Below are positions 5,661 through 26,503 of a DNA stretch of 64,000 nucleotides, piece by piece. Within the stretch, counting starts at the first letter, position 1. Every line of letters starts with the position of its first letter. The stretch covers positions 768,001-832,000 of the forward strand of contig CAVZYA010000002.1 of the NCBI GenBank assembly GCA_963779415.1. The letters run 5' to 3'. This DNA comes from an uncultured Acidobacteriota bacterium. GTDB taxonomy: Bacteria > Acidobacteriota > Thermoanaerobaculia > UBA5066. The position numbers and the translations under genes are program-made. The notes under the pieces were generated by a model. The model made no database searches, was not told the origin of the DNA, and worked only from the letters and a program-made list of their open reading frames with translations.

Positions 5661-7956
5661 CGGGCCCGCGTCCCGGGACGAGTCCGAGCAGGGCGCAGAG
5701 AACGTAGCAGCCGATCGCGGCAAGGAAGAGGGAGCGGATGCCGAAATGGAGCGCCGCGACGGCCGCCAGCGCGCCTCCCGCGACGGACGCGATCCCGTCC
5801 GCAGCGTAGACCGCCGCCGCCGCCCTCTGTCTCGGACCTGCCCAGCGTTCGATCACCGCCGGAAAACAGGCGCCCGCGGCGATCGTCGGCGGCGCGAAGA
5901 GAGCGGCGGCGGCGAGCAGGAGGGCGGCGTCTCCCTCTCCCGGGGAGGCGTCGAGAAGACGTCCCCAGAGTGCTACCGATCCGGTGAGGGTGACCGCCGT
6001 CGCCGCCGAGAAGAGGGCGAGCCGAAGGGACGTCGTTCCGCCGTGGAGCCGCACGGCGAGGAGGGCCCCGAGGCTTCCGAAGACGAACATCCCGCCGACT
6101 CCGAACGCCACCGCGAGCGTCGGGTTGCCGAAGAGGAAATGAGCGCGGTGGATCAACCCGGCCTGCAGGAAGATGAAGCCGAGGCCGAGAGCGGCCCCCG
6201 CTCCCCAGCCGGGAAGTGGGAGAGAGCCCGCCGACTCCGGCCGGCGGAGCGTATCGGCCACCGCGAGGAGGACGACGAGGGCGAGACAGGCCGCGCCGAG
6301 CCGGACCCAAACCGTGCCGGCGCGCCGCTCGAGATTGAAGAAGAAGGGGGATTCGTCCGTCGCGGGGGTCAGGTCCGGCTCGCTCCGGGCGACCCAGGAG
6401 GCGAGCGTCGTCTCTCCGCTCGCGAGGCTCCGGTACGGCTCCTCGGCCGGCCCTCCGGGAGCGAAGCGGACGCGGATTGCCTTTGCGGCACCCTCGAGAA
6501 GCTGCGTGACGCGCCCGAGCGAGACGGGCGCGCCGTGGACCAGAACGAGGTCGGAGAAGGCGCTCGAGGCGTCCGTCTCCAGGATCACGAACCGTTTCAT
6601 GGCCTCGGGCTCCGTGAGGCCGAGGCGCCGGAAGGCTTCGAGAGCCGTCGCGACGGTCTTGTCGGCCAGCTCGGTCTGGTTCTGGACGACCTCGATCGCC
6701 CCGCCCGGCGCCAGGTGCGCGAGATACGTCTCCATCGCCTCGACCGTGAAGACCCAGTTCTGTCGGGCGACGTTGCTTCGCCCCTCCGACGGGTCGTTCT
6801 GAATGAGCGACAGCTCGATCAGGTCGTACCGCTCGGACGTGTCCCGGAGAAAGCGACGCGCATCCGCCCGGACCACCCGGACCTCGCTCCGGTCGTAGAC
6901 ATGGCCGGAAAACTCCGCGAGGCCGCGCGTGAAGCGGATCGTGGCGCGGTTGATCTCGACGGCCGTCACGTCCGTCGCGCCCCCCTGGAGGGCGATCGCC
7001 ACGTCGAAGCCGCCGCCGGCGCCGAGGATCAGGACTTTCTTCGGCCGCCCGTTCCGGAACGGAAGCGCCTTCAGAGCGGCGCGCCCCTCCAGCTCCGGAT
7101 GGTCGAAACGGGGCGAGCGTCCGTCCCAGCGGACGACGCCGGCGGCATACATCCGGTCGGTGTAGAGATACTTCGCCCAGGGTCGGTCCATCTCCACGAG
7201 GTCGATGCGGGCGAAGTCGTCGTAGGCCGTGGCCAGAACGCGGCCGTGGTGCGACCGCGTCTCCCAGACGAGCTGCGGTTCGAACGTCACGACGGCGTAG
7301 GGGTCGACGGCGAGGACGCCGCCGGGGACGGCGAGATTCGCGAGAAGCAGAGCCGCCGGCGCCGCCGCGACGAGGGTGGGTGCGACGCGGGACGAGGCGA
7401 TGGAGAGCGGAAGCGCCGCGAGGCCGGCGACGCTCGCCGCGGCGAGACCGGTATTGACGTCGCCGATTCGCGGGAGAAGTACCAGTGCCGCGGCGACGCC
7501 GGCTCCCCCTCCGGCCATCTCGAAGGCATAGGTCAGGGAGGCGCGCGCTCCGATCCAGACGTAGGCTGTCGCCAGGCACGCTCCCGCGAAAAGGAAGGGA
7601 AGTGCGAAGACGCCGGCTTCGAAAGCGAGCTTCACGCGGATTACGAGCACCCAGGCGACGCCGGCCGAGAGGCCGGTGAGGAGTGCGAGAAGCCGGATCC
7701 GGGCGGGGGTGACCTCCCGTCCGCGTCGCGCCCTCTGCCAGTGGACGGCCGCGGCGCCGATTCCGAGCGCGGCGATGCAGACGGAAAGGACAAGAAAGGT
7801 CGCCTGCGTGTAAACGAGGACGGACGAGACCCGGGTCAGGGCGATCTGGTAGATCGCGAGGGCGAAGGAGACGAGCCCGAGGGTCAGACGGACCGCGAAG
7901 ACCGGCGCGTCGTCCCGCGGCGCTCCGGTGTCGTCGAGGCCCGGGTTTCCGGACAC
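5650..7956 (-). CDS. Multi-TM membrane protein with spermidine synthase-like SAM-binding domain
   Basis: TM bundles flank 'KVLILGAGGGFDV...VTAVEIN...DARRFL...YDLI'; 'PATDESPFFF' motif. Confidence 0.8.
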   Translation of the reverse strand: MSGNPGLDDTGAPRDDAPVFAVRLTLGLVSFALAIYQIALTRVSSVLVYTQATFLVLSVCIAALGIGAAAVHWQRARRGREVTPARIRLLALLTGLSAGVAWVLVIRVKLAFEAGVFALPFLFAGACLATAYVWIGARASLTYAFEMAGGGAGVAAALVLLPRIGDVNTGLAAASVAGLAALPLSIASSRVAPTLVAAAPAALLLANLAVPGGVLAVDPYAVVTFEPQLVWETRSHHGRVLATAYDDFARIDLVEMDRPWAKYLYTDRMYAAGVVRWDGRSPRFDHPELEGRAALKALPFRNGRPKKVLILGAGGGFDVAIALQGGATDVTAVEINRATIRFTRGLAEFSGHVYDRSEVRVVRADARRFLRDTSERYDLIELSLIQNDPSEGRSNVARQNWVFTVEAMETYLAHLAPGGAIEVVQNQTELADKTVATALEAFRRLGLTEPEAMKRFVILETDASSAFSDLVLVHGAPVSLGRVTQLLEGAAKAIRVRFAPGGPAEEPYRSLASGETTLASWVARSEPDLTPATDESPFFFNLERRAGTVWVRLGAACLALVVLLAVADTLRRPESAGSLPLPGWGAGAALGLGFIFLQAGLIHRAHFLFGNPTLAVAFGVGGMFVFGSLGALLAVRLHGGTTSLRLALFSAATAVTLTGSVALWGRLLDASPGEGDAALLLAAAALFAPPTIAAGACFPAVIERWAGPRQRAAAAVYAADGIASVAGGALAAVAALHFGIRSLFLAAIGCYVLCALLGLVPGRGPVRP

Positions 7957-8898: not shown

Positions 8899-10036
8899 GT
8901 GAAGACGTCCCCCCCTCCACCCGCCGGACGCTTCGCGTCGCTCGACTTTTTCCGGGGAGTGACCGTCGCGGGGATGATCTTCGTCAACAACCCGGGAGAC
9001 TGGGGGCATCTCTATTGGCCGTTCGACCACGCGGAGTGGCACGGCTGGACCCCGACGGACCTCATCTTCCCGTTCTTCCTCTTCATCGTCGGGACGGCGG
9101 GGGTCTTCTCGATGTCGAAGCGGATGGAGCGCGGAGCCTCCCGGCCGACTCTCGCGCGGCATGCGTTTACGCGCGGCATGACGATCGTTCTGGTCGGCTG
9201 GGCGATGTCGTGGTTCCCCTTCACGCTCGAGCGCCTCTCGCGCCTCCGAATTCCGGGCGTCCTTCCCGCGCATCGGCGTCGTCTACGTTCTCGGAACGCT
9301 GATCGTTCTCGCCGTCTGGCGCCGCCGGGCGGCCGGCGTCGCCATCGCCGCCCTGCTCCTCGTCGCCCTGCACACCTGGCTCCTCGTCGGCCTCGGCTTC
9401 GACCTCACGCCCGGTGGAAACATCCAGCGGGCCGTCGACCTCGCCCTTCTCAAGGGGCATCTCTGGAAGAAGGAGTGGGACCCGGAAGGGATCGTCTCCA
9501 CCTTGACGGCGATCGCGACGATGCTCACCGGGACGCTCGCGGGCTTCGTCCTCGTGGGGAAGACGGGGGAGACGGCGTCCCGTTACCGGCGAGCGGCGGC
9601 GGCCCTCGCGCTTTGGGGCGCGGCCGGGATCGCCGCCGGGCTCGCCTGGAGCCGGTGGCTCCCGATCAACAAGAACCTCTGGACCGGCTCCTACGTCGTC
9701 TTCACCTCGGGTGCGGCGTGCGTGGCGCTCGCCGTCTCGATCGTCGTCGTCGACCTCAAGGGGTGGCTTTCTCCCCGCGGGATCTTCTTCACCTTCGGCC
9801 GGAACCCTCTCGTCGTCTTCGTCGGCTCGGGCCTCCTCGCGAAGAGCCTCGGCCTCGTGAAGCTGGCGGGGCCCGGCGGAAGGACGGTGAGCCTTCAACG
9901 GGTCCTTTACGACGGGGGCTTCTCCTGGATCGCGGATCCGACGCTCCGCTCCCATGCCTTCGCCGTCGTGACGATCCTCTTCTGGTGGGGGATCCTTCTC
10001 GTCTTCGAGCGGAAGGGGTGGTACTGGAAGGTCTGA
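8899..10036 (+). CDS. Heparan-alpha-glucosaminide N-acetyltransferase-like (NagX/DUF5009) membrane protein; frameshift near 9265
   Basis: 'SLDFFRG', 'VNNPG', 'HAEWHGWTPTDLIFPFFLF', 'WDPEG', 'PINKNLWT'. Confidence 0.85.
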
Positions 10037-10110
10037 AGGGATCCCCTCTCTCCGGTTATGATCGGCCTCGCCGTTTCGATCGGAGGCCCTAAACGAACGC
10101 ACGCTTCGGG

Positions 10111-10869
10111 GTGTCTGCCGCGGCTCTCGCCGCCGTCCTTTTGATGTCGGCCGGTGTCCGTGCGGCGCCCGGGCCGGGAGACGCGCCCCTCTCGGCGGTA
10201 GGAACTCTGGTCGTCGACCAGGAGGTCACCGTCACGACGCGCGTTTCCGGGGTCATCGATTCCCTGATGGCCGAACGGGGCGAGGTCGTCCGGAAGGACC
10301 AGCCGCTGGCGACGATCGACCAGCGGGAGTTCCGGCTCGACCTCCGGGCCGCCCAGGAGACGCTGAACGTCTCCCGGGCCGATCTCAAGAGAGCCGAAGA
10401 GCTGTTCCGGCTCAGTCTGTGCAGCCAGGCCGAGCTGGAGCAGAAGCGGGCGCACCACGAGCTGGCGCAGGTGGAGTTCGAGCGCGCTCAGCTCGTCATC
10501 GATCGCTCGGTCGTTCGCGCACCCTTCGACGGCATCGTCGCGGACCGGTACGCGCACGTCGGCGAAAAGGTCCTCCTGGAGGAGAACAAGCCGCTCTTCA
10601 AGGTCGTCGCTCTCGAGCCGCTCCTCGCGCGCGCCTACCTCCCCGGCACCGCGCTGACCCGGGTGAAGCCGGGGCAGGAGGTGGCCGTCGCCGCGCACGA
10701 CCTGCCGAACGTCCGGTCCACCGGGCGCATCGCCTTCGTCAGCCCCGTCCTCGACCCGGGAAGCGGTTCCGTTCAGGTCGTCGTCAACGTCAAGCGCGAT
10801 ACGGGAAAGCTGCTCCGCCCCGGAATGGCCGTCCAGCTCCTCTTCGTGGGGGCCGCGGCCGCGCCCTGA
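10111..10869 (+). CDS. Membrane-fusion protein (RND/HlyD periplasmic adaptor)
   Basis: Signal peptide; 'RVSGVI...GEVVRKDQPLA', alpha-hairpin, 'VRAPFDGIV', 'LLRPGM'. Confidence 0.85.
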   Translation: MSAAALAAVLLMSAGVRAAPGPGDAPLSAVGTLVVDQEVTVTTRVSGVIDSLMAERGEVVRKDQPLATIDQREFRLDLRAAQETLNVSRADLKRAEELFRLSLCSQAELEQKRAHHELAQVEFERAQLVIDRSVVRAPFDGIVADRYAHVGEKVLLEENKPLFKVVALEPLLARAYLPGTALTRVKPGQEVAVAAHDLPNVRSTGRIAFVSPVLDPGSGSVQVVVNVKRDTGKLLRPGMAVQLLFVGAAAAP

Positions 10870-10881
10870 GGCTTAAGGTCA

Positions 10882-11559
10882 ATGGCACCGCGCCGGCGCA
10901 TCCCCCTCCGAACGGCGGCAGATTCGGTCCTGCTGCACGACATGCGGAACATGGGGCAACGACTTCACCTCCTGCTGTCGAATCTGGACGAGCATTACGG
11001 AGACCCGGAGTTCAAGAGGAGCGTCGCCGTCCTGCTCCGGAGCACGGTGGAGAAGCTCGACGCGATGGCCACGCAGTGGGCGGCCCGCCGCGGCGGTGTC
11101 CTGATCAAGGTTCCGCTCGACCTGAACGATCTCCTCGGCGAGCTGCTCGCGTCGGCCGGGACGATGGGCGGAGATGCCCGCGTCACGGCCGAGTACGGTG
11201 AGCTGCCGCGCGTCTGGGGAGATCCCTATCTTCTCAGGGAGGCTTTCGGGAACGTCCTCGAGAACGCGCTCGAAGCGGCGTCGTCGTCCGTCCGGGTCCG
11301 GACGAAAGTCGAAACGCACGGCCGGCGCCGCCGGGCCGTTCTGGAGATCGAGGACGACGGGCCCGGAATGTCAGCGGACTTCCTCGCGAACCGAATCTTC
11401 CAGCCCTTCCAGACGACGAAGCCGGACGGCGTCGGGCTCGGTCTCTACTCCGCTCGTCAGATCGTCGGCCTTCACCGCGGGACGATCGACGTCCGGAGCG
11501 CGCCGGGAGCGGGGACGACGCTGCGGATCGCCCTCCCCGCGGCGGGCGAGGACCGCTGA
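10882..11559 (+). CDS. Stand-alone PrsK-like histidine kinase (HisKA + HATPase, no sensor domain)
   Basis: H-box 'LHDMRN...LLLSN...DPEF' resembles PrsK; N-box 'NVLENALEA', 'DDGPGM', 'FQPFQTTK', 'GLGL'. Only about 20 aa precede the H-box. Confidence 0.85.
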   Translation: MAPRRRIPLRTAADSVLLHDMRNMGQRLHLLLSNLDEHYGDPEFKRSVAVLLRSTVEKLDAMATQWAARRGGVLIKVPLDLNDLLGELLASAGTMGGDARVTAEYGELPRVWGDPYLLREAFGNVLENALEAASSSVRVRTKVETHGRRRRAVLEIEDDGPGMSADFLANRIFQPFQTTKPDGVGLGLYSARQIVGLHRGTIDVRSAPGAGTTLRIALPAAGEDR

Positions 11560-11561
11560 GC

Positions 11562-12965
<1,404 letters not shown>

Positions 12966-13060
12966 AAGATCGACCGGCAGGGTTCTTCCCGGCTCCGACC
13001 CCTCGCAACAGGAGGAGACGATTTTCGGGGGTTTCTTGCGATCTGCGGCCGGCCGGACGC

Positions 13061-13077
13061 TTGGCCCCCCGATTGCA
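13061..13077 (+). promoter_or_regulatory. Sigma-54 (-24/-12) promoter
   Basis: TTGGCCCCCCGATTGCA: GG at 13063-64 and GC at 13075-76 with canonical 12-bp spacing. Confidence 0.8.
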
Positions 13078-13122
13078 GATGAAAGGGCGGCGTACAGCCA
13101 AGAGAAAGTCAGGAGGACGGAG

Positions 13123-13554
13123 ATGTCAAACGAAGTGAAGATCAAATTGACAGACGAGCAGAAGGCCAAAATCAAGAAGGGGACGGGTCAGGAGCTATCC
13201 GAGATCCGGGTGAGCGCCGTAGGTGCGCAGGCGGCTCCGCGTGGCGCAGCGGCTCCGCGTGGCGCAGCGGCTCCGCGTGGCGCAGCGGCTCCCCGTGGCG
13301 CAGCGGCTCCCCGTGGCGCAGCGGCTCCGCGTGGCGCGGCGGCTCCGCGTGGCGCGGCGGCTCCGCGTGGCGCAGCGGCTCCGCGTGGCGCGGCGGCTCC
13401 GCGTGGCGCGGCGGCTCCGCGTGGCGCAGCGGCTCCGCGTGGCGCGGCGGCCCCGCGTGGCGCGGCGGCTCCGCGTGGCGCAGCGGCTCCGCGTGGCGCG
13501 GCGGCTCCGCGTGGCGCGGCGGCTCCGCGTGGCGGAGGACTTCCGAGCGTCTAG
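13123..13554 (+). CDS. 143-aa precursor-like peptide: ~35-aa charged leader, 17 tandem (A/Q)AAPRG units, GGLPSV tail
   Basis: AGGAGG RBS at 13111-13116, ATG 13123, TAG 13552-54; repeat variation is synonymous in this frame; flanked by promoter and terminator. Confidence 0.85.
   Translation: MSNEVKIKLTDEQKAKIKKGTGQELSEIRVSAVGAQAAPRGAAAPRGAAAPRGAAAPRGAAAPRGAAAPRGAAAPRGAAAPRGAAAPRGAAAPRGAAAPRGAAAPRGAAAPRGAAAPRGAAAPRGAAAPRGAAAPRGGGLPSV
13228..13533 (+). repeat. Coding tandem repeat, 17 x 18 bp (GCR GCG GCT CCG CGT GGC)
   Basis: Directly visible; no spacers; units 2-17 differ only at wobble positions. Confidence 0.95.
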
Positions 13555-13582
13555 CACGTCGGGTCGAAAGAGCCGTGACCCG

Positions 13583-13615
13583 AAGCGCCCCGGCTTCCCG
13601 GGGCGCTTTATTCTT
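13583..13615 (+). terminator. Intrinsic terminator between convergent genes
   Basis: AAGCGCCCCGG-CTTC-CCGGGGCGCTT perfect 11-bp stem followed by TATTCTT. Confidence 0.8.
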
Positions 13616-13619
13616 GGAA

Positions 13620-15812
13620 CTACCAGAAAGTCGACCGCAGCCAACGGTAAAGGATACGGCCTGCCTCAGCCAGGAGCGACGTCCGCGGCCCGCGGATCTT
13701 GGCGAAGCCGGACATTCCCGGTCGGAGGGTCCCGTCCGGGTTCTCGAACAGGGCTCGCACGACAATCTGGTCGGGCATCTCGGGCGGTCGAAGGGCTTCG
13801 GTAGCCTCGCCTCTCTCGTTATTGCGGGTGGCTGGGGCGATCGAGACGATGGTCCCGCGCACGGCGCGGAAGGGGCGGGCTGCGAGGTGAAGGGAAACGG
13901 TCTCGCCGACGCCGAGGTCGTACAGGAGACGCTCCGAGACCGGAAACGTGGCCGCGAGACGTGTCGTCTCGCCGACGGTGACGAGGGAAGTCCCGGCGGC
14001 GAGCCAGCGCCCTCGAAGGTCGTCCGGACGCGCCGTGAGAAGCCGGCCCTCGAACGGGCTCGTCACCTCGAGCGAGGCGGTTCGTGCGGCGTCGCTGGAA
14101 AGGCCCGCCTCGGCGGCTCTCTCGTGTTTTTCCGCGAGGAAAGCCTCGCCGGCCGCTCCCGCGCTGCGGCTCCGGCCGGCGTTGCCGGTCGCACCGGCAA
14201 GCCGTGCCTCGTCCGTCCGCCGCGACGTCTCGACGGCCGGACTTCCGAGCCGCAGGATCGGCTGCCCCGCGCGGAGGAGGTCGCCCTCGTGCGCGAGGAC
14301 CTCACGGACGATGCCGACCTCGGGGGCCTGGAGTCGCGCCGAGCGGGCGGGCTCGAGGACGGCATCCATCCGGATCGTCCGGGGGTACCACGGCAGGACA
14401 AGAAGAAGGACAGCCGCACCGGCGGCGGCGAGAAGAGGCGCGCGGGCTCGCGGCGACATCAGGAACTCCTTCTTGTCGAGATAGAAGAGGCGTGAAATTC
14501 GGACGAGGAGCCTGACCCTGCTTCGGAAGAAGAGGTACAGCGTGAGGAGGAGCAGGACTATCGCGAAATCCGGAACGAAGCTTGAGTAGAAGCTGTCGAG
14601 AAGCCTCGTGATGAACAGCATGATCAGGCCGAGGTAGCCGACTGCCAGCGTCCCGTAGACGGCGAAGATCCACTTCTTCCGCCGCGACACGACGGGGACC
14701 TCGACATTCAACCTCAGGATGTGTTTCTGGAAGAGCGAACCGAGGTACTTGAAGGAGTCTCCGCGGAGCTCCGGGATCTCGATGATGCTGGAGAGCGCGT
14801 AATACCCGTCCAGTTTTGTGAGCGGGTTGATGTTGAAAAAGACCGTCGAGATTCCCGTGAAGAGCATCGTCTTGTATGCCAGCGCATGGGCGAAGGAATC
14901 GGGGTATGTCGCGACCCAGAGCACAGTCGCAATCGTGCAGATGATCCCTTCGATGTAGATCCCGGCGATCGTCACCCAGAAACGTTGCCACTTGTTCGTG
15001 AACAGAAACGAGTCGGTCGTGTCGCAGTAGAAGGCGGGAGTGAAGTAGAGGAGAGCGATTCCCATGTCGTGGACGTCCCCCCCGTACATCTTTGTCGTAT
15101 ACCCATGGGCAAATTCGTGAAAGAAGCAGATCGTGGTCAGAATCACCCAGAACTGGATGAAGTCCCAGAACGGCTTCTGCCAGAACGTATAGAGATCGAG
15201 AGTCTGCGCCCAGATCGTGTCGAAACGGGTGGCGAAGACGCCGATCGTGAAGAGAAAGCAAACGCACGTGATGGTGACCGTCGTCGGCCGCCAGAGCCAC
15301 CGGACGTACCGGACTGTGCGCGTCAGGATGCGGTCCGGGTCGAAGACCTTAAAGAGCATGAAGAGGACATTGAAGCCCTCCGACTTCTCCTTGGCTGTCC
15401 GGTGCCTGAGCGACGCGAACTTCGAGAGGAGCTGGAGATTCCTCTCGGCCGCCGACTGCTCGAGTGCCTCGATGCCGCGGAGCATCTCCTCGTAGTCGAG
15501 GACCAAGGACAGGTCGACGGCGCTCCCTCCCAGCCGCCGGCTGTACTCCTCGCGAATCTCGATCGGCGTCCGCGTCCCGTCGAAAAGCTCGATAAGACCC
15601 CACGACCCGTCGTCAAAGGCGTAGACCTTGTTCGTTTCGGGGACTTTGACGACATACGAGACCTCGCCCATCTGGACCTGCCTCCGGATGACGAGGCTCT
15701 TCTTCAGTGCGGGCTTCTCCAGCCGCGTGCCGTGGCGGGCGGCGAGCGCTTCGGCGCTCTTCCCGGCGAGGGCCGCCGAGACGAGGCCGCCCGGCGCGAC
15801 GGCGGCGCTCAC
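13620..15812 (-). CDS. RRE/PqqD-like + M50 intramembrane metalloprotease + HlyD-type membrane-fusion domain fusion
   Basis: N-terminal 'SYVVKVPETNKVYAF...LFDGTRT..EI'; HExxH (HEFAH) and 'NINPLTKLDGYY'; C-terminal 'EVTSPFEG', 'NPDGTLRPGMSG'. Confidence 0.85.
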   Translation of the reverse strand: MSAAVAPGGLVSAALAGKSAEALAARHGTRLEKPALKKSLVIRRQVQMGEVSYVVKVPETNKVYAFDDGSWGLIELFDGTRTPIEIREEYSRRLGGSAVDLSLVLDYEEMLRGIEALEQSAAERNLQLLSKFASLRHRTAKEKSEGFNVLFMLFKVFDPDRILTRTVRYVRWLWRPTTVTITCVCFLFTIGVFATRFDTIWAQTLDLYTFWQKPFWDFIQFWVILTTICFFHEFAHGYTTKMYGGDVHDMGIALLYFTPAFYCDTTDSFLFTNKWQRFWVTIAGIYIEGIICTIATVLWVATYPDSFAHALAYKTMLFTGISTVFFNINPLTKLDGYYALSSIIEIPELRGDSFKYLGSLFQKHILRLNVEVPVVSRRKKWIFAVYGTLAVGYLGLIMLFITRLLDSFYSSFVPDFAIVLLLLTLYLFFRSRVRLLVRISRLFYLDKKEFLMSPRARAPLLAAAGAAVLLLVLPWYPRTIRMDAVLEPARSARLQAPEVGIVREVLAHEGDLLRAGQPILRLGSPAVETSRRTDEARLAGATGNAGRSRSAGAAGEAFLAEKHERAAEAGLSSDAARTASLEVTSPFEGRLLTARPDDLRGRWLAAGTSLVTVGETTRLAATFPVSERLLYDLGVGETVSLHLAARPFRAVRGTIVSIAPATRNNERGEATEALRPPEMPDQIVVRALFENPDGTLRPGMSGFAKIRGPRTSLLAEAGRILYRWLRSTFW

Positions 15813-18229
15813 GGCAGGAGGGGCCAGAGCTTCGTGGCGGCCCAGCGCGCCGGCCGGCGGAAGAGCGCCACGAGGAGCGGGCGGCGGCCGGTCGAGATCT
15901 TCCCCGTCCCGAGCATGCCCGGCTTGAGAAGACCGGAGGGGTTCTCGACCCGCGTCTCGGCGATTAGGAACCTCTCCTCTCCCTCCTCGCGTACGGCGGC
16001 GCCGAGCCGTGACACGCGCCCCCGGAACGTCCGCGTCGGGTAGGCGTTCATCTTCAGCGTGACATCCTGCCCGTCGGCGAGGAGGGTGGCGTCGCGCTCC
16101 GGGATCGCCACTTCCGCGAGGAGGGACGAGGTCTCGGCGAGGACGGCGAATTCCGCGCCGGCGGCGAGAAGCTGGCCGACCCGCTCGTCGAGGCGGGGAG
16201 TGATGACGATGCCGGCCTCCGGCGCGCGGAGCCGCGTGGCGGCCAGGCGCTCCTCGGCCCAGGTGGCGCGCGCGCGCGCCTCGCCGCGCCGGGAGAGAGC
16301 CTGCCCCATCGCGGCGGCGTTCCCCTCGGCCCGATGGCGCGCCACCTCGGCCTCGGCGATCTGCTCGGCGGCGCGGGCCTCGGCGAGGGCGGCCCGGTAG
16401 GCGTCGTCCTTGAGCGTCGCGATGACGTCACCCGCCGCCACGACGTCTCCCTCGCGATGCTCCACGGTGGCCACGATCCCGTCGACATAGGCAGTCACCG
16501 GAATCCGCCGCCCCGGAACGGCGCGGGCGGGGCCGGTGACGCGGATGTTCCAGGGCACGAGGACGAGGAGGAGCAGGGCCGCGGCGGCTCCCAGAAGCCA
16601 GCGCCGCCACCGGCTTGCCGGAAGGGCCGACAGCTTTCGCGTTCGCTCCGCGAGGGGCTTCAGGAAGCCGGGAAGCGGCATCTGCTGGTAGAGCTGGGCG
16701 TTCCTGACGGCGACTGTGGCCTGGTTGACGAGGATCTGAAGAAGATCGCGTGTCCCCGCGTCGAACTCGAGGGGCTCGTTACATTCGAACCCGAGGACTC
16801 CGAGCTTCCCTTCCTCGTCCTCGAGCAGAACGCCGTAGAAGGCGTTCCGGCCCGTCGCCTCGAAGAAGGCCCGGAACTTCTCCTCGGTCTCGGGCCGGTC
16901 CGTCTCGATCGTCCCGTCCTCCAGTCGCGTGACGGCTACGTTCTTACCGCCCCAGAAGACCCACTCCAGGAGTTCCTCTGTCCGGCGGACGGACGGGTCC
17001 TTCCGGTCCAGCTCCGCCACCCCGGAAACAGCCCCTATCCGGAGCTGTCCGCGCGAGAGGATCGCGATGGCGGCCCGGTCGTACGTCACGAGCGCGGAGC
17101 TGGCGTTCACGATGGTCCGCATCACCTTGTCGAGGTCGAGGGTGGAGGTGATCTCCCGGCTGACGGCGAGGAGGGCATCCAGCTCCTCGACCTTCTTCTC
17201 GGCCTCGTACTGGCGCGCGTTGTGGAGCGCCCGGACGGCCTGCCTCTCGATGTCGGCGAGAAGCTCCTCGTCGGCCGCGGTGAACTCGGGGTGCCGGCCG
17301 CGCTTGTTGACGACGACGATCACGCCGATCGGCGCGTCGTCCTCGAGGAGCGGCGCGGCGAGGAAGGAGTGGACCGGGTAGTCCGGGTTCTCGCCCCGCA
17401 CCGGGTCGTCCTCGGAAAGATCGTGCCGGCGCACAGTCGCGCTCTCGGCGAGGATGTCACCGACGATGGAGCCTCCAACGGCATCGGGCGGCGCGGGAAT
17501 GTCGTAGTTCGTGTTGACGGCCGTGGCCGCCAGCGTCACCTCGCCGGCCTGCCGGTCGAGTGTCCAGAATGACGCGACCTCGGCGCCCATGAAGTCGACG
17601 GCCTTACGGGCGATGATGGCCGAAAGCTCGGCGAGGTCGATCGTGGAGCCGAACGCCTTCGTCAGGTCGAAGAGGCTCGTCAGACGCTCGATGGCGTAGA
17701 GCATGCCGCCCGTCTTCCGCTCGGCGCGGAGAGCGCGGGCGAGGGCGGGCGTGGCGTGCTTGAGAAACCCCTGCACGTTCTGGAGGACGCTCCGGTCGGG
17801 CATCCGGTGGAAGGCGAGGGCGAGGATGCCGACGACGATCCGTTCGGCCGAAAGCGGCACGAAGAGGCACGCGACCGCCGGCGCCGGGATCGCCTTCAGG
17901 AAGGGGTCGTCAGCCGCGGCCAGCTGGTCGGCTTGGAGAAGAAGCGGGGTCCGGTCGCGGACGAGATCGTGTACGAGCCCGGTCTCCCGCGGGACGGAAC
18001 GCCTGACAACGCGTTCCGTGCCGGTGCCGTAGGCCGCGATGCAGAGGAAGGTGGGGTGGAGTGCGTCCGGGGCCCAGAGAAGGGCCGCGTCCGCGCCGGC
18101 CAGTTCCGCGCTCCACCGGGCCGCCCATCCCGAAGTCTGCGCGAGGCTCTCGCAGAGGGCCAGCTCCGCCAGCGCCCTGATCTCGGCGCTTTCCGGCGGC
18201 GACCCTCCGCGGCTCGGATCCTCTGGCAT
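15809..18229 (-). CDS. Multi-GAF-domain protein fused to HlyD-type membrane-fusion domain
   Basis: Three GAF-like repeats ('FLAAPL...IGVIVVVNK..FTAADEELL...ALHNARQY'), single TM, 'LRAPEAG', 'NPSGLLKPGMLG'; GTGA overlap with the M50 gene. Confidence 0.85.
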   Translation of the reverse strand: MPEDPSRGGSPPESAEIRALAELALCESLAQTSGWAARWSAELAGADAALLWAPDALHPTFLCIAAYGTGTERVVRRSVPRETGLVHDLVRDRTPLLLQADQLAAADDPFLKAIPAPAVACLFVPLSAERIVVGILALAFHRMPDRSVLQNVQGFLKHATPALARALRAERKTGGMLYAIERLTSLFDLTKAFGSTIDLAELSAIIARKAVDFMGAEVASFWTLDRQAGEVTLAATAVNTNYDIPAPPDAVGGSIVGDILAESATVRRHDLSEDDPVRGENPDYPVHSFLAAPLLEDDAPIGVIVVVNKRGRHPEFTAADEELLADIERQAVRALHNARQYEAEKKVEELDALLAVSREITSTLDLDKVMRTIVNASSALVTYDRAAIAILSRGQLRIGAVSGVAELDRKDPSVRRTEELLEWVFWGGKNVAVTRLEDGTIETDRPETEEKFRAFFEATGRNAFYGVLLEDEEGKLGVLGFECNEPLEFDAGTRDLLQILVNQATVAVRNAQLYQQMPLPGFLKPLAERTRKLSALPASRWRRWLLGAAAALLLLVLVPWNIRVTGPARAVPGRRIPVTAYVDGIVATVEHREGDVVAAGDVIATLKDDAYRAALAEARAAEQIAEAEVARHRAEGNAAAMGQALSRRGEARARATWAEERLAATRLRAPEAGIVITPRLDERVGQLLAAGAEFAVLAETSSLLAEVAIPERDATLLADGQDVTLKMNAYPTRTFRGRVSRLGAAVREEGEERFLIAETRVENPSGLLKPGMLGTGKISTGRRPLLVALFRRPARWAATKLWPLLP

Positions 18230-18253: not shown

Positions 18254-18589
18254 TCAGAAGCTGGAGACGGCCTGTTCGCGGTCGTCGTACGTCTCGAAAA
18301 CGGAGTCGAGACGGGTCAACTCGAGGAGCCGCCGGAGCTGCGGCCCCACGGCGACGAGTTTCGTCTGACCGCCGCCGCTCTGCGATTCCGTCAGGGCGCG
18401 GACGAGAGCGCCGAGGCCGGTGGAATCGACCGAACGCAGGGCGCTGCAGTCGACGAGGATGTCCACCTTCCCTGTCTCGAGCAGGCGGAGGATCTCCCGC
18501 TTGAAGGCCGTTTCGGAATCTCCGATGACGAGATCGCCGGAGATCGAAACGACCGTTACGCGACCGTCTTCCTCGATCGAAAGCTGCAT
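18254..18589 (-). CDS. STAS-domain anti-sigma factor antagonist
   Basis: 'VDSTGLGALV', 'LLELTRLDSVF'; 111 aa. Confidence 0.9.
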   Translation of the reverse strand: MQLSIEEDGRVTVVSISGDLVIGDSETAFKREILRLLETGKVDILVDCSALRSVDSTGLGALVRALTESQSGGGQTKLVAVGPQLRRLLELTRLDSVFETYDDREQAVSSF

Positions 18590-23380: not shown

Positions 23381-23452
23381 CGTAGCTCCGGCAAGGGAAT
23401 GGGGGGGTGCGAGCCCGTCAGTCATGCCGGAGCGGCGTCGCTCCCCCAGAGC

Positions 23453-26241
23453 TCAGAAGTCGAGCTCGTGCCGTGAGCACCAGCCGCCGCGGTGAGGCCC
23501 AGCTCGTGGCATTTCCGTAGTTCGGGTTCGGCTGGGAGGTCCCCTGCGGTGTCGAGAACCGAATACGGGGTGCCGTTCACGTACGGGTCGTGGTACTTGA
23601 CGCCGTCGACGTTTAGAACGGTCTGCGTGTTGAAGAGGTTGTAGACGCGCGCCTCGAGCCGGAGGTTCGTGGCGCCGCCGAGCTTGAAGGTGTACGCCCC
23701 GAGCAGGTCGAAGGTCGTCCAGGTCGGGAGCCGCTGCGATCCGGCCGGCTCGAGGTAGCGCTGGTAGCCGCTATTGGAGTTCGTGTCCGCGCCGAGTGCC
23801 TGCCACGGAGTGCCGCTCTGGACGGTGAGGAAGCCGCCGAGGGTGACGCCGAACGGGAAGTCGTAGCTCCCGATCAGCTTGAAGATGACCGGGCGGTCCT
23901 GTGCAAGGCGGCCGTACCGGTACGGCTCGCTTGTGTAACCGCCGGGACCGTCGTTCGAGGTAGTCGAGGTGTTGAACGTGCCGGCCCGTAGTCGTCGTCG
24001 AAGTTGCCGTAGAGCTTGCTGAAGGTGATGTTCGCGTCGGCGTACCAGCCGTTCGAGTAGCGCTTCTGGACGTCGAGCGTGATGGCGCGGTAGACGCGCC
24101 GCGCGTCGGGGAAGTTCGCCGCCTGGAAGAGGCTTCCGGAGTTGTCCGGGTTGATCGGCGTGTCCTCGAAGGGGTTCTTCAGGTTCCGGTACTGGTAGTA
24201 GGCGTCGAAGCTGACGTCCTTGGTCACCGCCGCGGAGTAGCCGAGGACCCACTCCTGGTAGTAGGGCGGCTTCAGGTCGGGCGGGATGTACTTCCCGGCC
24301 GAGGAGGCGCGGATCTGCGTCCCCTGATAGACGCCGGTCGTCGGGTCGAAGAAGGCGTAGCTCTGGGAGATCCGGTACGGGGCGAAGGAGCGCGCCGTCG
24401 ACTTCTGGTCGAGGTTGGCGTACTCGCCGTAGCTCGAGTAGAACTTGTCGCTCGAGAGCAGGTTCGGGTTCCAGGTGATGCCGAGTCGCGGCTGGATCTC
24501 CTGGCTCCAGTTGAACGTCATGAAGTTGTAGCGCGTCTCGGTCTGGGGAGTCGTCGTGCCGCAGACGATGCCCGGCTTGCAGACCTGGGCGAAGTCGTCC
24601 TTGTTGGCGAGGACGCCGAGGTAGACCGTGACGTTCTTCCAGGTGACCGTGTCCTGGAGGAAGGCCGAGTAGGTCCGCGCCTTGGCGTACTGCTCCGGCT
24701 GGGTCGGGTAGTAGCGGGCGCGGATGCTGGCCCGGTCTTCGAGGTGCCGCAGACGGGGCCGGGCAGGTCGAGCCGGTGTTCAGGAGGGCCCAGCCGTTCG
24801 ACTGCCGGAAGACGTCGTCGTCGGTGTCCTCGTACCCGCCGCCCAGCTTGAACTGGTTCTGCGTCGGCCCGAGGTCGAGGAACTGGCTGATCGTCGCCTT
24901 GACCTCGTTCCGCGTGTACTTGTCGCCCGTAGTCGACGAACTGGTAGACGCCGGCGTTTCCCGGTCTGCCGGGCCGGGTCGTCGTACTCGCCGTATGCGC
25001 CGAGGTTGTGCGGGTCGATCGTCGTCGGCATGCTGCTGAGGACGTTCTGCGCCCTGCGTGAGGTCGTTTTCCTTGTAGTAGACGTACTTCGCCTCGACGA
25101 CCGTGTCCTTGGAGGCGAACCAGTCGGCCGTCGCGTTTCCGATGTAGTTCGTGGTGTCGGACCCGTACGCGGCCGTTGGGGCGATCGTAGATCGAGGCGA
25201 ACTGGTCAGTCGACTTGCTCGGCAGCGCCCGGAAGCCGGCGTTGACGAGGACGTCCTGGCCGGCGAAAGGCCGTCAGCTTCCCGAAGTAGTCGCCGTCGT
25301 GTCGTCTTCGAGTCGGGCTGCGTCGTCGTGACGCCGCGAACTGGCTCGTCTGGCCCAGCGTCTGTCGTGTCGTAGTAGGCCGCAGAGGCGTACCCGAAGA
25401 GGACGTCCTTCACGATCGGGAACCCGATGTTCGCCTGGCCGTTGTAGGTGCTCTCTTCCTGAGGTCGTCGTCGAAGTCCTTGTTGGCCTGGAAGGAGCTG
25501 GGGGAGAGGTTGAACTGGACGGTCCCGGCGACCTCGTTCGTCCCCGATTTCGTGACGGCGTTGAACATGGCGCCCGCCCGTCCGGCCGAACTCGGCCGAG
25601 ATGCCGGCCTTCTTGACGTTGAAGTCGGCGATGTCGAGCTGGTTCGTGTTGCTCCCGAGATTGCCGTAGCCCGGGTTCGTGATGTTGACGCCGTCGAGGA
25701 GGAACTTGTTGTCCTGCCGCGTCGCCGCCCGAGATGGCGACGTCGCCGATTGCCGCTCGTGTCGTTGGCGACGCCCGGCGACCATCTTGATGAGCCCCTG
25801 GTACGTTCGTTGCCGAGCGGGGAGGTCCTTGATGACCTTCTCGCCGTAGTTGAAGTTGACCTCGGAGGCCTTCTTGTCGATCTCGGACATGGCGCCGGTC
25901 ACGACGATCTCCGTCTTCGTCGTCTGGATCAGGACGAGCGTGAGCTGGGCGTCATTGTCGACCGTGACGAGAACCTTCTGGCTCGCCGTCCCGAGGCCCT
26001 TCAGATCGGCCGTGACAACATAGTTTCCCGGCAGAAGGATCGGGAACTTGAACCCGCCCCCCGCGCCCGTGACGGTGTTGCGAGGCGCCTGAGAGCCGGT
26101 GACCGTCACCGTGGCGCCGGGAACCGGGGCCCCGGTGCCGTCTTTGACGACGCCGGAGATCGACCCGGTCTCGGTCGCGAAGGCGGTCGTGGCGGTCACG
26201 ACGAACGCCACCGCGACCAGAATCCTGAGAACGTTTTTCAT
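23453..26241 (-). CDS. Oar-type TonB-dependent receptor with carboxypeptidase regulatory-like domain; many frameshifts
   Basis: Signal peptide, 'GSISGVVKDGTGAPVPGATVTV', 'AEFGR', 'QPRLG', 'YNLFNTQ', C-terminal 'PRRL...F'; GGAGG RBS. Confidence 0.8.
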
Positions 26242-26503
26242 CAAGCCTCCTCCTCCATTTTGAGAGAGATTTTCAGGATGTTGAGATACCTGCAGCGATG
26301 TTCCGGCATTCGGATCTCCGTCGGGAGATCCAGAATTTTGAAGGTTCGTCCCGACGGTCGAGCGATATTCGAGAGACTTACGTCACAGACACCCATGAAA
26401 GACAACAACGCGAAGGATAAATCGCAAGCTCCCTGCCAGTCGAAGAAGATGTTCATTTACCGGGAGAGAATGCCGGCGCGGCCCGGGGATCCGGGCCGTC
26501 TCC

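Follow-up and report, generated by a model that had tools for sequence, protein, structure and literature searches.

We analyzed a 64,000-nucleotide stretch (hereafter, the window) of contig CAVZYA010000002.1 from an uncultured bacterium of the phylum Acidobacteriota (Thermoanaerobaculia; UBA5066), and describe in it a small gene (13123-13554, + strand) encoding a conserved leader followed by 17 tandem copies of a hexapeptide. Comparison with related genomes points to a dedicated cassette of seven genes encoding (i) a fusion of a domain resembling the recognition element (RRE) of peptides made on ribosomes and modified after translation (RiPPs), an M50 protease and a HlyD adaptor, (ii) a GAF-HlyD fusion, (iii) a STAS protein, (iv) a short HlyD protein, (v) a histidine kinase, (vi) a sigma-54 activator, and (vii) the peptide. 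In the reading that we favor, with a probability of about one half, the gene encodes a leader-guided substrate of the adjoining envelope machine, which would be cut, exported, and act as an intact, mostly cationic, disordered polymer. The peptides apparently form a large, undescribed family of soil bacteria; a search confined to the openly accessible literature turned up no description of the family, of its control by sigma-54, or of the way it is paired with the machine.

Comparative analysis confirmed that the small peptide gene is real. The open reading frame (ORF) of 143 codons has the product MSNEVKIKLTDEQKAKIKKGTGQELSEIRVSAVG-A-QAAPRG-(AAAPRG)x16-GGLPSV, in which the 34-amino-acid (aa) leader (13123..13224, +) is conserved across the family and the tail (13225..13554, +) is formed by 17 units of 18 bp encoding (Q/A)AAPRG, followed by GGLPSV and the stop codon. 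Thus, re-reading of the ORF agrees with an earlier sequence-only reading of this DNA, which had described a leader, QAAPRG, 16 copies of AAAPRG, and GGLPSV. Tandem Repeats Finder placed the array at 13225-13534 (period 18, 17.2 copies, 95% matches, score 534). Units 2-17 vary at only three nucleotide positions (GCA/GCG in eight units, CCG/CCC in two, and GCT/GCC in one). All three are third codon positions in the + frame of 13123, where every change is synonymous, whereas in the remaining frames and on the opposite strand the same changes alter residues of the ORF translations. This synonymous-only variation shows the true frame of the gene, just as the sequence-only reading had argued, and independent evidence for both the frame and the ATG comes from the leader homology and from the ribosome-binding site AGGAGG (13111..13116, +), read directly 7 nt before the ATG. 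The choice between GCA and GCG runs A-G-G over units 6-17, forming a 54-bp higher-order repeat (13225-13530), which suggests that the array grew by three-unit blocks of 54 bp. With ~100 aa, the array is ordinary for the family (median array length, 81 aa; interquartile range (IQR), 62-104). The source genome contains a single cassette and a single peptide gene.

The sequence-only reading had also assigned to the gene a ribosome-binding site, a promoter and a terminator of its own; the first and the last of these stand, and the promoter is of the sigma-54 rather than the sigma-70 type. A -24/-12 element of the GG-N10-GC type, TGGCCCCCCGATTGCA, is located at 13062..13077 (+), 45 nt before the ATG, and a promoter scan of positions 12800-13800 found no sigma-70-like sites. 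The pattern TGGC-N7-TTGCR has two matches in the window, versus 0.46 expected. In related loci, TGG(C/T)-N7-(T/G)TGC lies no more than 100 nt from the ATG in all 14 of a set of leader-anchored loci (13 of 13 without the unpublished genome G024, which holds loci L016 and L030). The element is also present, again at up to 100 nt, in all 41 true members of a further leader-anchored set (30 with TGGC and 11 with TGGT) and within 110 nt of the start in 68 of 69 protease-anchored loci, at a background density of 0.0035 per 100 nt; these three sets overlap, and their genomes are relatives. By the element and the adjacent enhancer-binding protein, the peptide gene is predicted to be sigma-54-dependent. 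A Shine-Dalgarno-like motif precedes the peptide gene in 14 of 14 loci. Downstream, between the convergent peptide and protease genes, an intrinsic terminator with a 10-bp GC stem, a CUUC loop, and a U-rich tail occupies 13584..13615 (+). Its stem (13584-13607) is followed by UUAUUCUU, and a 71-nt stretch folds at -34.3 kcal/mol (z = -3.9); the + strand hairpin was seen by folding, although it is unlisted by a simple terminator scan.

Homologues of the leader, a search for which the sequence-only reading had proposed, were recovered in number by leader-only searches. A profile of 13 leader sequences matched 386 proteins (clusters at 50% identity) among 1.84 billion representatives at E <= 1e-3, and 81 at E <= 1e-10. 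A word-based search returned four metagenomic proteins with leaders 82-94% identical and with different repeat tails. When 401 genomes of the phylum were searched in six frames, 16 matches emerged, comprising 13 true members (the source genome included) and three chance matches; matches were found in two of the three other genomes of the same family and in all four genomes of a sister family. Of 151 proteins kept from the word-based and profile searches, 144 are family-like, the other seven being mostly multi-copy LTXXQ-type proteins. Each true member examined combines the same leader with a different tandem-repeat tail, and the named family records come nearly all from metagenome-assembled genomes (MAGs) of Thermoanaerobaculia or Acidobacteriota. 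The exact window peptide had no match in a collection of 15 billion proteins; two homologues are singletons there, one named 'hypothetical protein'. The leader has no consistent match in Pfam or NCBIfam, and a protein atlas search with residues 1-40 of the peptide gave no usable match. Seven residues (I7, L9, T10, Q13, T21, G22, and E27) are invariant over the 13 leader sequences. In the AlphaFold2 model, the leader forms a strand (5-8), a helix (11-21), and a second strand (27-30) at a predicted local distance difference test (pLDDT) score of 70-82, and the tail is without secondary structure (pLDDT ~50-58).

Several groups of matches had to be separated from the family. The short leader profile produced false positives, among them L023-L025, planctomycete proteins rich in 'LTDEQ' (L082-L085), and long LTDEQKAK-type (LTXXQ-like) proteins that cross-match the leader profile (P0014, P0075, P0090, P0117, P0147, and P0150). 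Several of these cross-matching proteins have signal-peptide-like N-termini, and such LTXXQ-like proteins need filtering when the family is mined. A double-glycine leader of the kind processed by C39 peptidases was considered and rejected: the hydrophobic positions appear out of register, and no C39-type ATP-binding cassette (ABC) transporter gene was seen nearby. In two short homologues, P0110 and P0142, the same leader motif precedes a classical double-glycine-type motif (…LDKVAGG and …LAGVVGG, respectively) and a short core without repeats, so that ordinary bacteriocin-like peptides may use the leader module as well. In six members (L107, L115, L149, P0021, P0039, and P0055) the frame runs far past the array (194-572 aa), most likely as a result of frameshift errors within the repeat arrays of metagenome assemblies. 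In a locus search with a closer six-row leader alignment, a leader 79% identical was found on an 8.5-kb contig (L043) of a MAG labelled Acidithiobacillales, the other true members in the same scan all being labelled Acidobacteriota or Thermoanaerobaculia; this contig may be mis-binned or may represent a transfer.

The association between the peptide and the machine was also seen from the protease side. Among 268 relatives of the protease in species-representative genomes, 80 were kept, 69 of which have at least 700 nt of downstream flank; a leader-type peptide gene convergent to the protease gene was found in all 69. The peptide stop lies 50-228 nt from the end of the protease match in 67 of these loci; in the other two (L107 and L149), which look like frameshifted assemblies, the peptide frame reads through and overlaps the protease gene. 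Gene content was compared in 12 wider loci and L009, two of the loci stopping at a contig edge. All six genes for the three HlyD-bearing proteins, the kinase, the activator, and the peptide are present in every one of the 11 loci with both flanks, ten of which keep the gene order of the window, the exception being L032, where the short-HlyD homologue is located between the M50-HlyD and GAF-HlyD genes. Without L016 and L030 of G024, these counts become 10 of 10 and 9 of 10. The conservation extends to M50-HlyD identities as low as 30-34%. Taken singly, the short HlyD gene, the kinase, and the activator are each conserved in 13 of 13 loci, and GAF-HlyD in all 11 loci that hold that flank. The STAS gene adjoins GAF-HlyD in L009 and L026-L030, and STAS homologues are found elsewhere in L032-L034. 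The genes outside the cassette are common only to two genomes of the same family. In L033, L034, and L036, a gap of ~1.7 kb separates the short HlyD and kinase genes; in L033 it holds a gene (6115-7758, +) for an FHA-GAF-SpoIIE(PP2C) phosphatase, which might be the natural partner of the cassette STAS protein and fits partner-switching control.

In the cassette, the genes for the short HlyD protein, the kinase, the activator, and the peptide (+) face those for the STAS, GAFx3-HlyD, and RRE-M50-HlyD proteins (-), and the genes to either side of the peptide gene make up two operons. In the regulatory operon, whose genes upstream of the peptide are spaced 2-12 nt apart, the first gene (10111..10869, +) encodes a short periplasmic adaptor of the HlyD type that starts with a signal-like segment at its N-terminus (Pfam HlyD_D23, 3.5e-23, and HlyD_3, 1.9e-21; NCBIfam RND_mfp, 2e-45). 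The second gene (10882..11559, +) encodes a sensor-less histidine kinase of 225 aa that consists of an H-box and HATPase_c only (Pfam HATPase_c, 6e-23). In NCBIfam, the kinase matches best to PrsK, over its C-terminal third (TIGR02916; 136.7 bits against a cut-off of 300, 1e-39). The third gene (11562..12965, +) encodes a sigma-54-dependent response regulator with the architecture REC - AAA+ Sigma54_activat - HTH_8 (Pfam Sigma54_activat, 6.8e-68; Response_reg, 6.3e-16; HTH_8, 1e-5; NCBIfam PrsR-like TIGR02915, 403.9 bits against a cut-off of 502.6, 8.5e-121). The machine operon, on the opposite strand, begins with a gene (18254..18589, -) for a STAS protein resembling anti-sigma antagonists (Pfam STAS, 1.5e-19). 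It is followed by a gene (15809..18229, -) for an 806-aa protein with three GAF stretches, a transmembrane segment, and a HlyD adaptor (Pfam GAF_2, 8.8e-25; HlyD_D23, 2.8e-20); this gene shares 4 nt with the beginning of the protease gene.

The protease gene (13620..15812, -) encodes a 730-aa fusion, assigned by Pfam, NCBIfam, and fold, of an RRE-like domain, an M50/site-2-protease core, and a HlyD adaptor. Pfam detected Peptidase_M50 (2.1e-8; 34.2 bits against a cut-off of 27.2) and HlyD_3 (3e-11); NCBIfam gave daptide_HExxH as the best match (3.6e-46; 158 bits, under the cut-off of 300) and a weak match to YydH/LiaK (2e-10). The motifs HEFAH at 232 (HExxH) and NINPLTKLDG at 327 (NxxPxxxxDG) have hydrophobic segments around them, and both motifs are invariant in 10 of 10 aligned homologues; together with the Pfam match above the cut-off they place the protein among the M50/site-2 proteases. 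The N-terminal fold was modelled with AlphaFold2 from the first 190 residues and a 10-row alignment, and residues 31-120 form three strands and three helices (pLDDT ~86). When this model was compared with the PDB using Foldseek, the top 10 matches were all RREs, namely those of leader-bound TbiB1 (5v1u/5v1v), PqqD (5sxy), ThcOx, a sactipeptide radical S-adenosylmethionine enzyme (5wgg/5why), and TruD. TbiB1 was the best match (E 2e-3; template modelling (TM) score on the target, 0.66-0.73), and the TM score on the target was 0.62-0.73 for the four free-standing RRE-sized targets (TbiB1 chains and PqqD). A complex prediction with RRE-like residues 28-125 (10-row alignment) and the leader (13-row alignment) scored 0.02, the mark being 0.32, and was counted neither for nor against docking. 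In terms of known classes, the peptide shows the conserved leader and variable core of a RiPP-type precursor and has an RRE as a neighbor (by fold); Pfam and NCBIfam scans found no modifying-enzyme domains in the seven cassette genes, and hence no core-modifying enzyme.

These features suggest the following pathway. Sequence and conservation indicate that the peptide is probably silent until the kinase/activator pair is switched on, because it has a sigma-54 promoter and is positioned directly after the sensor-less kinase and the sigma-54 activator. The 34-aa leader, modelled as strand-helix-strand, may then dock on the RRE-like N-terminal domain at the cytoplasmic side, and the M50 zinc protease, by analogy with characterized relatives, would remove the leader near the leader/tail junction. 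The RRE-fused site-2 protease MpaP removes the leader of daptides (10.1101/2023.03.08.531785), a bacteriocin loses its leader to TmcP, a protease of the S2P clan (PMC13712780), and the M50 protease EpeP is thought to both cleave and export its peptide (PMC10885120). Judging by domain content, the disordered tail of ~110 aa could leave by way of an assembly that the three HlyD-type adaptors would form, and the cytoplasmic GAF domains and the STAS protein could gate its transfer. Finally, the (AAAPRG)17 tail, with a net charge of ~+17, would serve as an intact multivalent polymer on the envelope, in the matrix, or on neighboring cells, and the unit sequence of the exported polymer would be lineage-specific.

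The tails evolve in a way that bears on this proposal and on its competitors. Between the window and L009, the proteases are 77% and the leaders 79% identical, and the tails 26%, shuffled tails averaging 27.6%. In L086-L088, whose proteases are 76-78% identical to that of the window, the units are RKPTAKVAL, NAKLNAKM, and AAKAVAARQAAKAAAPRQ, versus AAAPRG. Of 67 tails, 17 have an A-P-(R/K) motif in common (for example, AAPRN x16, VAAPR x14, and AGAPR x27); Cys is absent from the repeat units, and aromatic residues are nearly so. Within arrays, by contrast, the unit is kept while codons drift: adjacent units differ at codon positions 1, 2, and 3 in 65, 61, and 263 cases, and 220 codon changes are synonymous against 88 non-synonymous ones. 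Nei-Gojobori-style counts over 12 arrays gave proportions of synonymous (pS) and non-synonymous (pN) differences of 0.40 and 0.087, a ratio of 0.22 (0.23 without L030), with 0.14 for the array of the window and a per-array range of 0.025-0.51. The protein-level purifying selection proposed in the sequence-only reading is therefore much clearer from these 12 arrays than from the three variable sites of this array alone. The pS values of some arrays are as high as 0.8-0.9 (with a maximum synonymous divergence of 0.88), so these arrays are old rather than fresh products of slippage. Copy number can nevertheless vary, as had been anticipated: L151 and L152 have identical leaders and flanks and carry 4.9 and 6.9 units, respectively, and arrays with a common unit hold 12.3-15.6 or 10.5-15 copies.

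In contrast to the unit, the overall length is stable. Over 63 arrays, with units of 3-25 aa and 2.9-41 copies, unit length shows no correlation with array length (Spearman -0.12, p 0.35), and the copy number follows period^-1.06 (r -0.82); long units were reduced to minimal periods approximately, and the 63 arrays are phylogenetically non-independent. The total peptide length has a median of 144 aa (IQR, 128-162), close to the 143 aa of the window peptide. The conserved array length, the unstructured tail, and a cassette without a second protease or a modifying enzyme together make us lean towards the intact polymer. Thus, the leader-plus-core precursor proposed in the sequence-only reading holds; between its two options for the product, released hexapeptides or a cationic polymer, the evidence leans to the latter without deciding. 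Its description of the tail as cationic is typical rather than universal, since, of 144 family-like proteins, 100 have tails with a net positive charge, 26 have tails close to neutral, and 18 have net negative ones. New relative to that reading are the sigma-54 promoter, the dedicated seven-gene cassette, and the replacement of the repeat by another in every lineage.

The best-placed competitor, in our view rather unlikely, is a multi-core precursor that, after docking by its leader, would be cleaved once per unit at a regularly spaced basic site (here after Arg or Arg-Gly), releasing ~17 identical, unmodified hexapeptides as signals or antimicrobials, with the array setting the dose. Multi-core RiPP precursors such as cyanobactin PatE and the fungal ustiloxin-type precursors carry one leader and several identical cores per product. 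To our knowledge, the known ones have recognition or cleavage sequences between the cores, dedicated excising proteases, and modifying enzymes. The window peptide shares with them the leader and the identical copies; it lacks the inter-core sequences, its units abutting directly without recognition spacers, and the M50 enzyme is the sole protease in the conserved cassette, which contains no second, excising protease and no modifying enzyme. For the regular Arg-Gly cleavage envisaged in the sequence-only reading this means that a basic residue is indeed available in nearly every unit (Lys or Arg in 62 of 63 units of one set and 59 of 62 of another), but a dedicated second protease is missing from the cassette. 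As far as the accessible descriptions go, the M50/S2P proteases of RiPP pathways trim the leader (MpaP, TmcP, and EpeP) or a C-terminal residue (TglG and TmoG), and none is described there as cutting repeated core sites. The selection on units at drifting codons (the 65/61/263 pattern; pN/pS of 0.22 overall and 0.14 here) agrees with released hexapeptides, and the units, of 3-25 aa and mixed chemistry without a shared structural period, look as if they acted singly; the tails also differ between lineages, as is the case for signals and bacteriocins. On the other hand, copies drop as the unit grows, so that total length rather than dose looks conserved, and some units have only 3-4 aa (KAT, AKPL, and SARQ), which is short for a specific signal. 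The strong unit selection, the basic residue in nearly every unit, and the lack of a common structural period keep the multi-core reading alive.

An unlikely but far-reaching reading is that the arrays are lineage-specific 'barcodes', many exact copies of a short peptide word that would be exported, whole or already cut, by a pump-less route made up of the leader-reading site-2 protease and the three adaptors, and read back via the sensor-less kinase/sigma-54 loop. If true, this would mean a novel export pathway and a novel type of system for signalling among kin or for coding surfaces.

A very unlikely explanation, in the style of regulated intramembrane proteolysis, is that the polycationic tail is freed in the cytoplasm and binds nucleic acid or another polyanion like histone-H1-like proteins, the HlyD domains serving to sense or anchor. 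Site-2 proteases classically release cytoplasmic fragments (RseP and SpoIVFB), and the Ala/Lys/Pro repeats of the family presumably resemble the tails of AlgP and mycobacterial HupB. In line with such a release, the peptide carries no Sec or Tat signal (read directly), the tails are net positive in 100 of 144 proteins, and no energy source for export is encoded. Yet the strict conservation of three periplasmic adaptors with the peptide is hard to account for if the envelope is not involved, units such as ESLRAGVEQ, DLSANQ, and SLKDD represent the 18 of 144 tails with a net negative charge, and a cytoplasmic DNA-binding protein is not expected to swap its entire repeat between close relatives. 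More remote is a scheme in which function resides in the leader: the peptide would regulate or plug the machine (for example, at the RRE or the channel) until degraded, the tail being only a spacer or timer that counts by its length and not by its sequence. The leader is far better conserved than the tail, tail length is conserved and tail sequence is not, and the tail is predicted to be disordered, as this idea would have it; but the amino-acid sequence within arrays is clearly selected, which a pure spacer would not need, and the cassette has no further conserved gene that is a candidate for the substrate. Finally, a non-coding or artefactual repeat, that is, a GC-rich minisatellite or assembly expansion open by chance in several frames (the array is indeed open in at least four), has a negligible probability and is already refuted as far as sequence analysis goes, given the leader conserved in 386 clusters, the conserved ribosome-binding site, sigma-54 promoter, and terminator, the synonymous-only variation confined to the peptide frame, and the peptide gene in 69 of 69 loci picked by the neighboring protease gene alone.

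The exported polymer itself has to be weighed against several observations. All family members are known here from sequence alone, and the compared genomes are relatives and not independent. Since Pfam finds no PqqD domain in the N-terminus of the protease, the RRE is assigned at the level of fold, with a best Foldseek E-value that is only modest (2e-3). The window peptide lacks the G-x-N-P-A-V-S junction common in its relatives, so its cleavage site cannot be placed. The weakest step is the energetics: no motor is encoded for a +17 tail, as no pump, ABC transporter, ATPase, or outer-membrane factor was detected among the cassette genes and the neighboring ORFs scanned, and the source genome has the canonical SecA alone, without a second SecA. 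By the positive-inside rule, moving a +17 polycation out against an inside-negative potential would be energetically awkward. The purifying selection on exact units would seem to exceed the needs of a mere charge polymer, and the constant array length could reflect a mutational limit on repeat DNA, not function.

Comparison of the cassette with known systems revealed partial similarities. In the daptide system (MpaA/MpaP, NF041824), a short precursor with a conserved leader is likewise accompanied by a protease joining an N-terminal RRE-type domain to an M50/S2P core, and this family provides the best NCBIfam match of the window protease, yet below the cut-off (158 versus 300 bits). As described for daptides, their clusters encode an oxidative decarboxylase, an aminotransferase, and a methyltransferase, absent from the window cassette. 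Their precursors have an invariant C-terminal Thr and an ELExMEAP leader motif, whereas the window peptide ends in Val and lacks the motif; and their core is an aliphatic helix as opposed to a hydrophilic tandem repeat. The window protease, unlike those of daptides, has a C-terminal HlyD adaptor, and the adjoining peptide gene is predicted to be under sigma-54 control. By score, C-terminal residue, leader motif, and enzymes, the window peptide was thus not assigned to the daptides. Epipeptides (YydF/YydH and EpeX/EpeP) and TMcin (TmcA/TmcP) also rely on a membrane protease of the M50/S2P clan for maturation of a small ribosomal peptide; the available accounts describe these peptides as modified (by radical-SAM epimerization or a disulfide) and non-repeat, and mention no RRE, HlyD fusion, GAF-HlyD, STAS, or sigma-54 circuit.

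The closest precedent for the machine is a module of GAF-HlyD, Peptidase_M50, HlyD, and secondary SecA_DEAD proteins described on the basis of comparative genomics by Kamneva, Poudel and Ward in 2015, in the accessible text of which its function is stated to be unknown (PMC4452313). As presented there, the module shares with the window cassette the GAF-HlyD fusion, an M50-like protein with HlyD, a HlyD-only protein, and the absence of an ABC transporter. It differs in having a second SecA_DEAD ATPase, whereas the source genome of the window has the canonical SecA only, and in its taxa (Planctomycetes-Verrucomicrobia-Chlamydiae (PVC), Proteobacteria, Nitrospirae, and Chlorobi), which differ from the lineage of the window; the same text names no substrate, leader peptide, RRE, or sigma-54 control. 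Thus, as far as these sources go, the machine trio (PMC4452313) and the RRE-S2P fusion of daptides were already known. The present analysis links a module published, by that text, without a substrate (Kamneva et al. 2015, PMC4452313) to a concrete and easily assayed candidate cargo, and would extend the idea of an RRE-fused site-2 protease from daptides to unmodified hydrophilic repeat polypeptides. It also raises two questions: how a polycation could be transported by a machine without a pump or ATPase, and why units are strictly kept within a lineage and replaced wholesale between lineages. For annotation, the combination of the leader profile, a sigma-54 box, and a convergent M50-HlyD gene provides a rule for finding a small gene that is easily missed.

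The nearest named NCBIfam relatives of the kinase and the activator, both below the cut-offs, are the PEP-CTERM regulators PrsK and PrsR (TIGR02916/TIGR02915). The window kinase lacks the whole membrane sensor part of PrsK, and a PEP-CTERM motif is absent from the window peptide. The sigma-54 promoters that PrsR drives belong to small secreted proteins of low complexity.

Two further class assignments were considered and rejected. The matches to collagen (PF01391; 17.9 bits against 27.2) and to the Scl/Lcl adhesins (SclB/Lcl; 41 bits against 325) were treated as compositional because the tail has no Gly-X-Y pattern, Gly being found only at every sixth residue. Collagen-like genes with Gly-X-Y repeats (GATGPAGPAG...) at ~161.9-164.8 kb of G000:C3 (L005 and L008) are weak compositional matches unrelated to the family. 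A type I secretion substrate was likewise rejected: HlyD-type proteins are present, but neither an ABC transporter nor an outer-membrane factor was found in the cassette or in the neighboring ORFs scanned, and the peptide has no GGxGxD repeats.

Two minor observations concern other genes of the window. Upstream of the cassette, an HGSNAT-like acyltransferase gene (8899-10092, +) appears to be split, its N-terminal part being in the 8899 frame and the rest in the 9503-10036 frame; both halves have homologues in L009 and L029, and the split could be a frameshift or a sequencing error. The other TGGC-N7-TTGCR match of the window, TGGCAGGGAGCTTGCG at 26423-26438 (-), is located ~180 nt upstream of a gene for a 940-aa CarboxypepD_reg-domain protein (23422-26244, -), which may be a second sigma-54-dependent gene.

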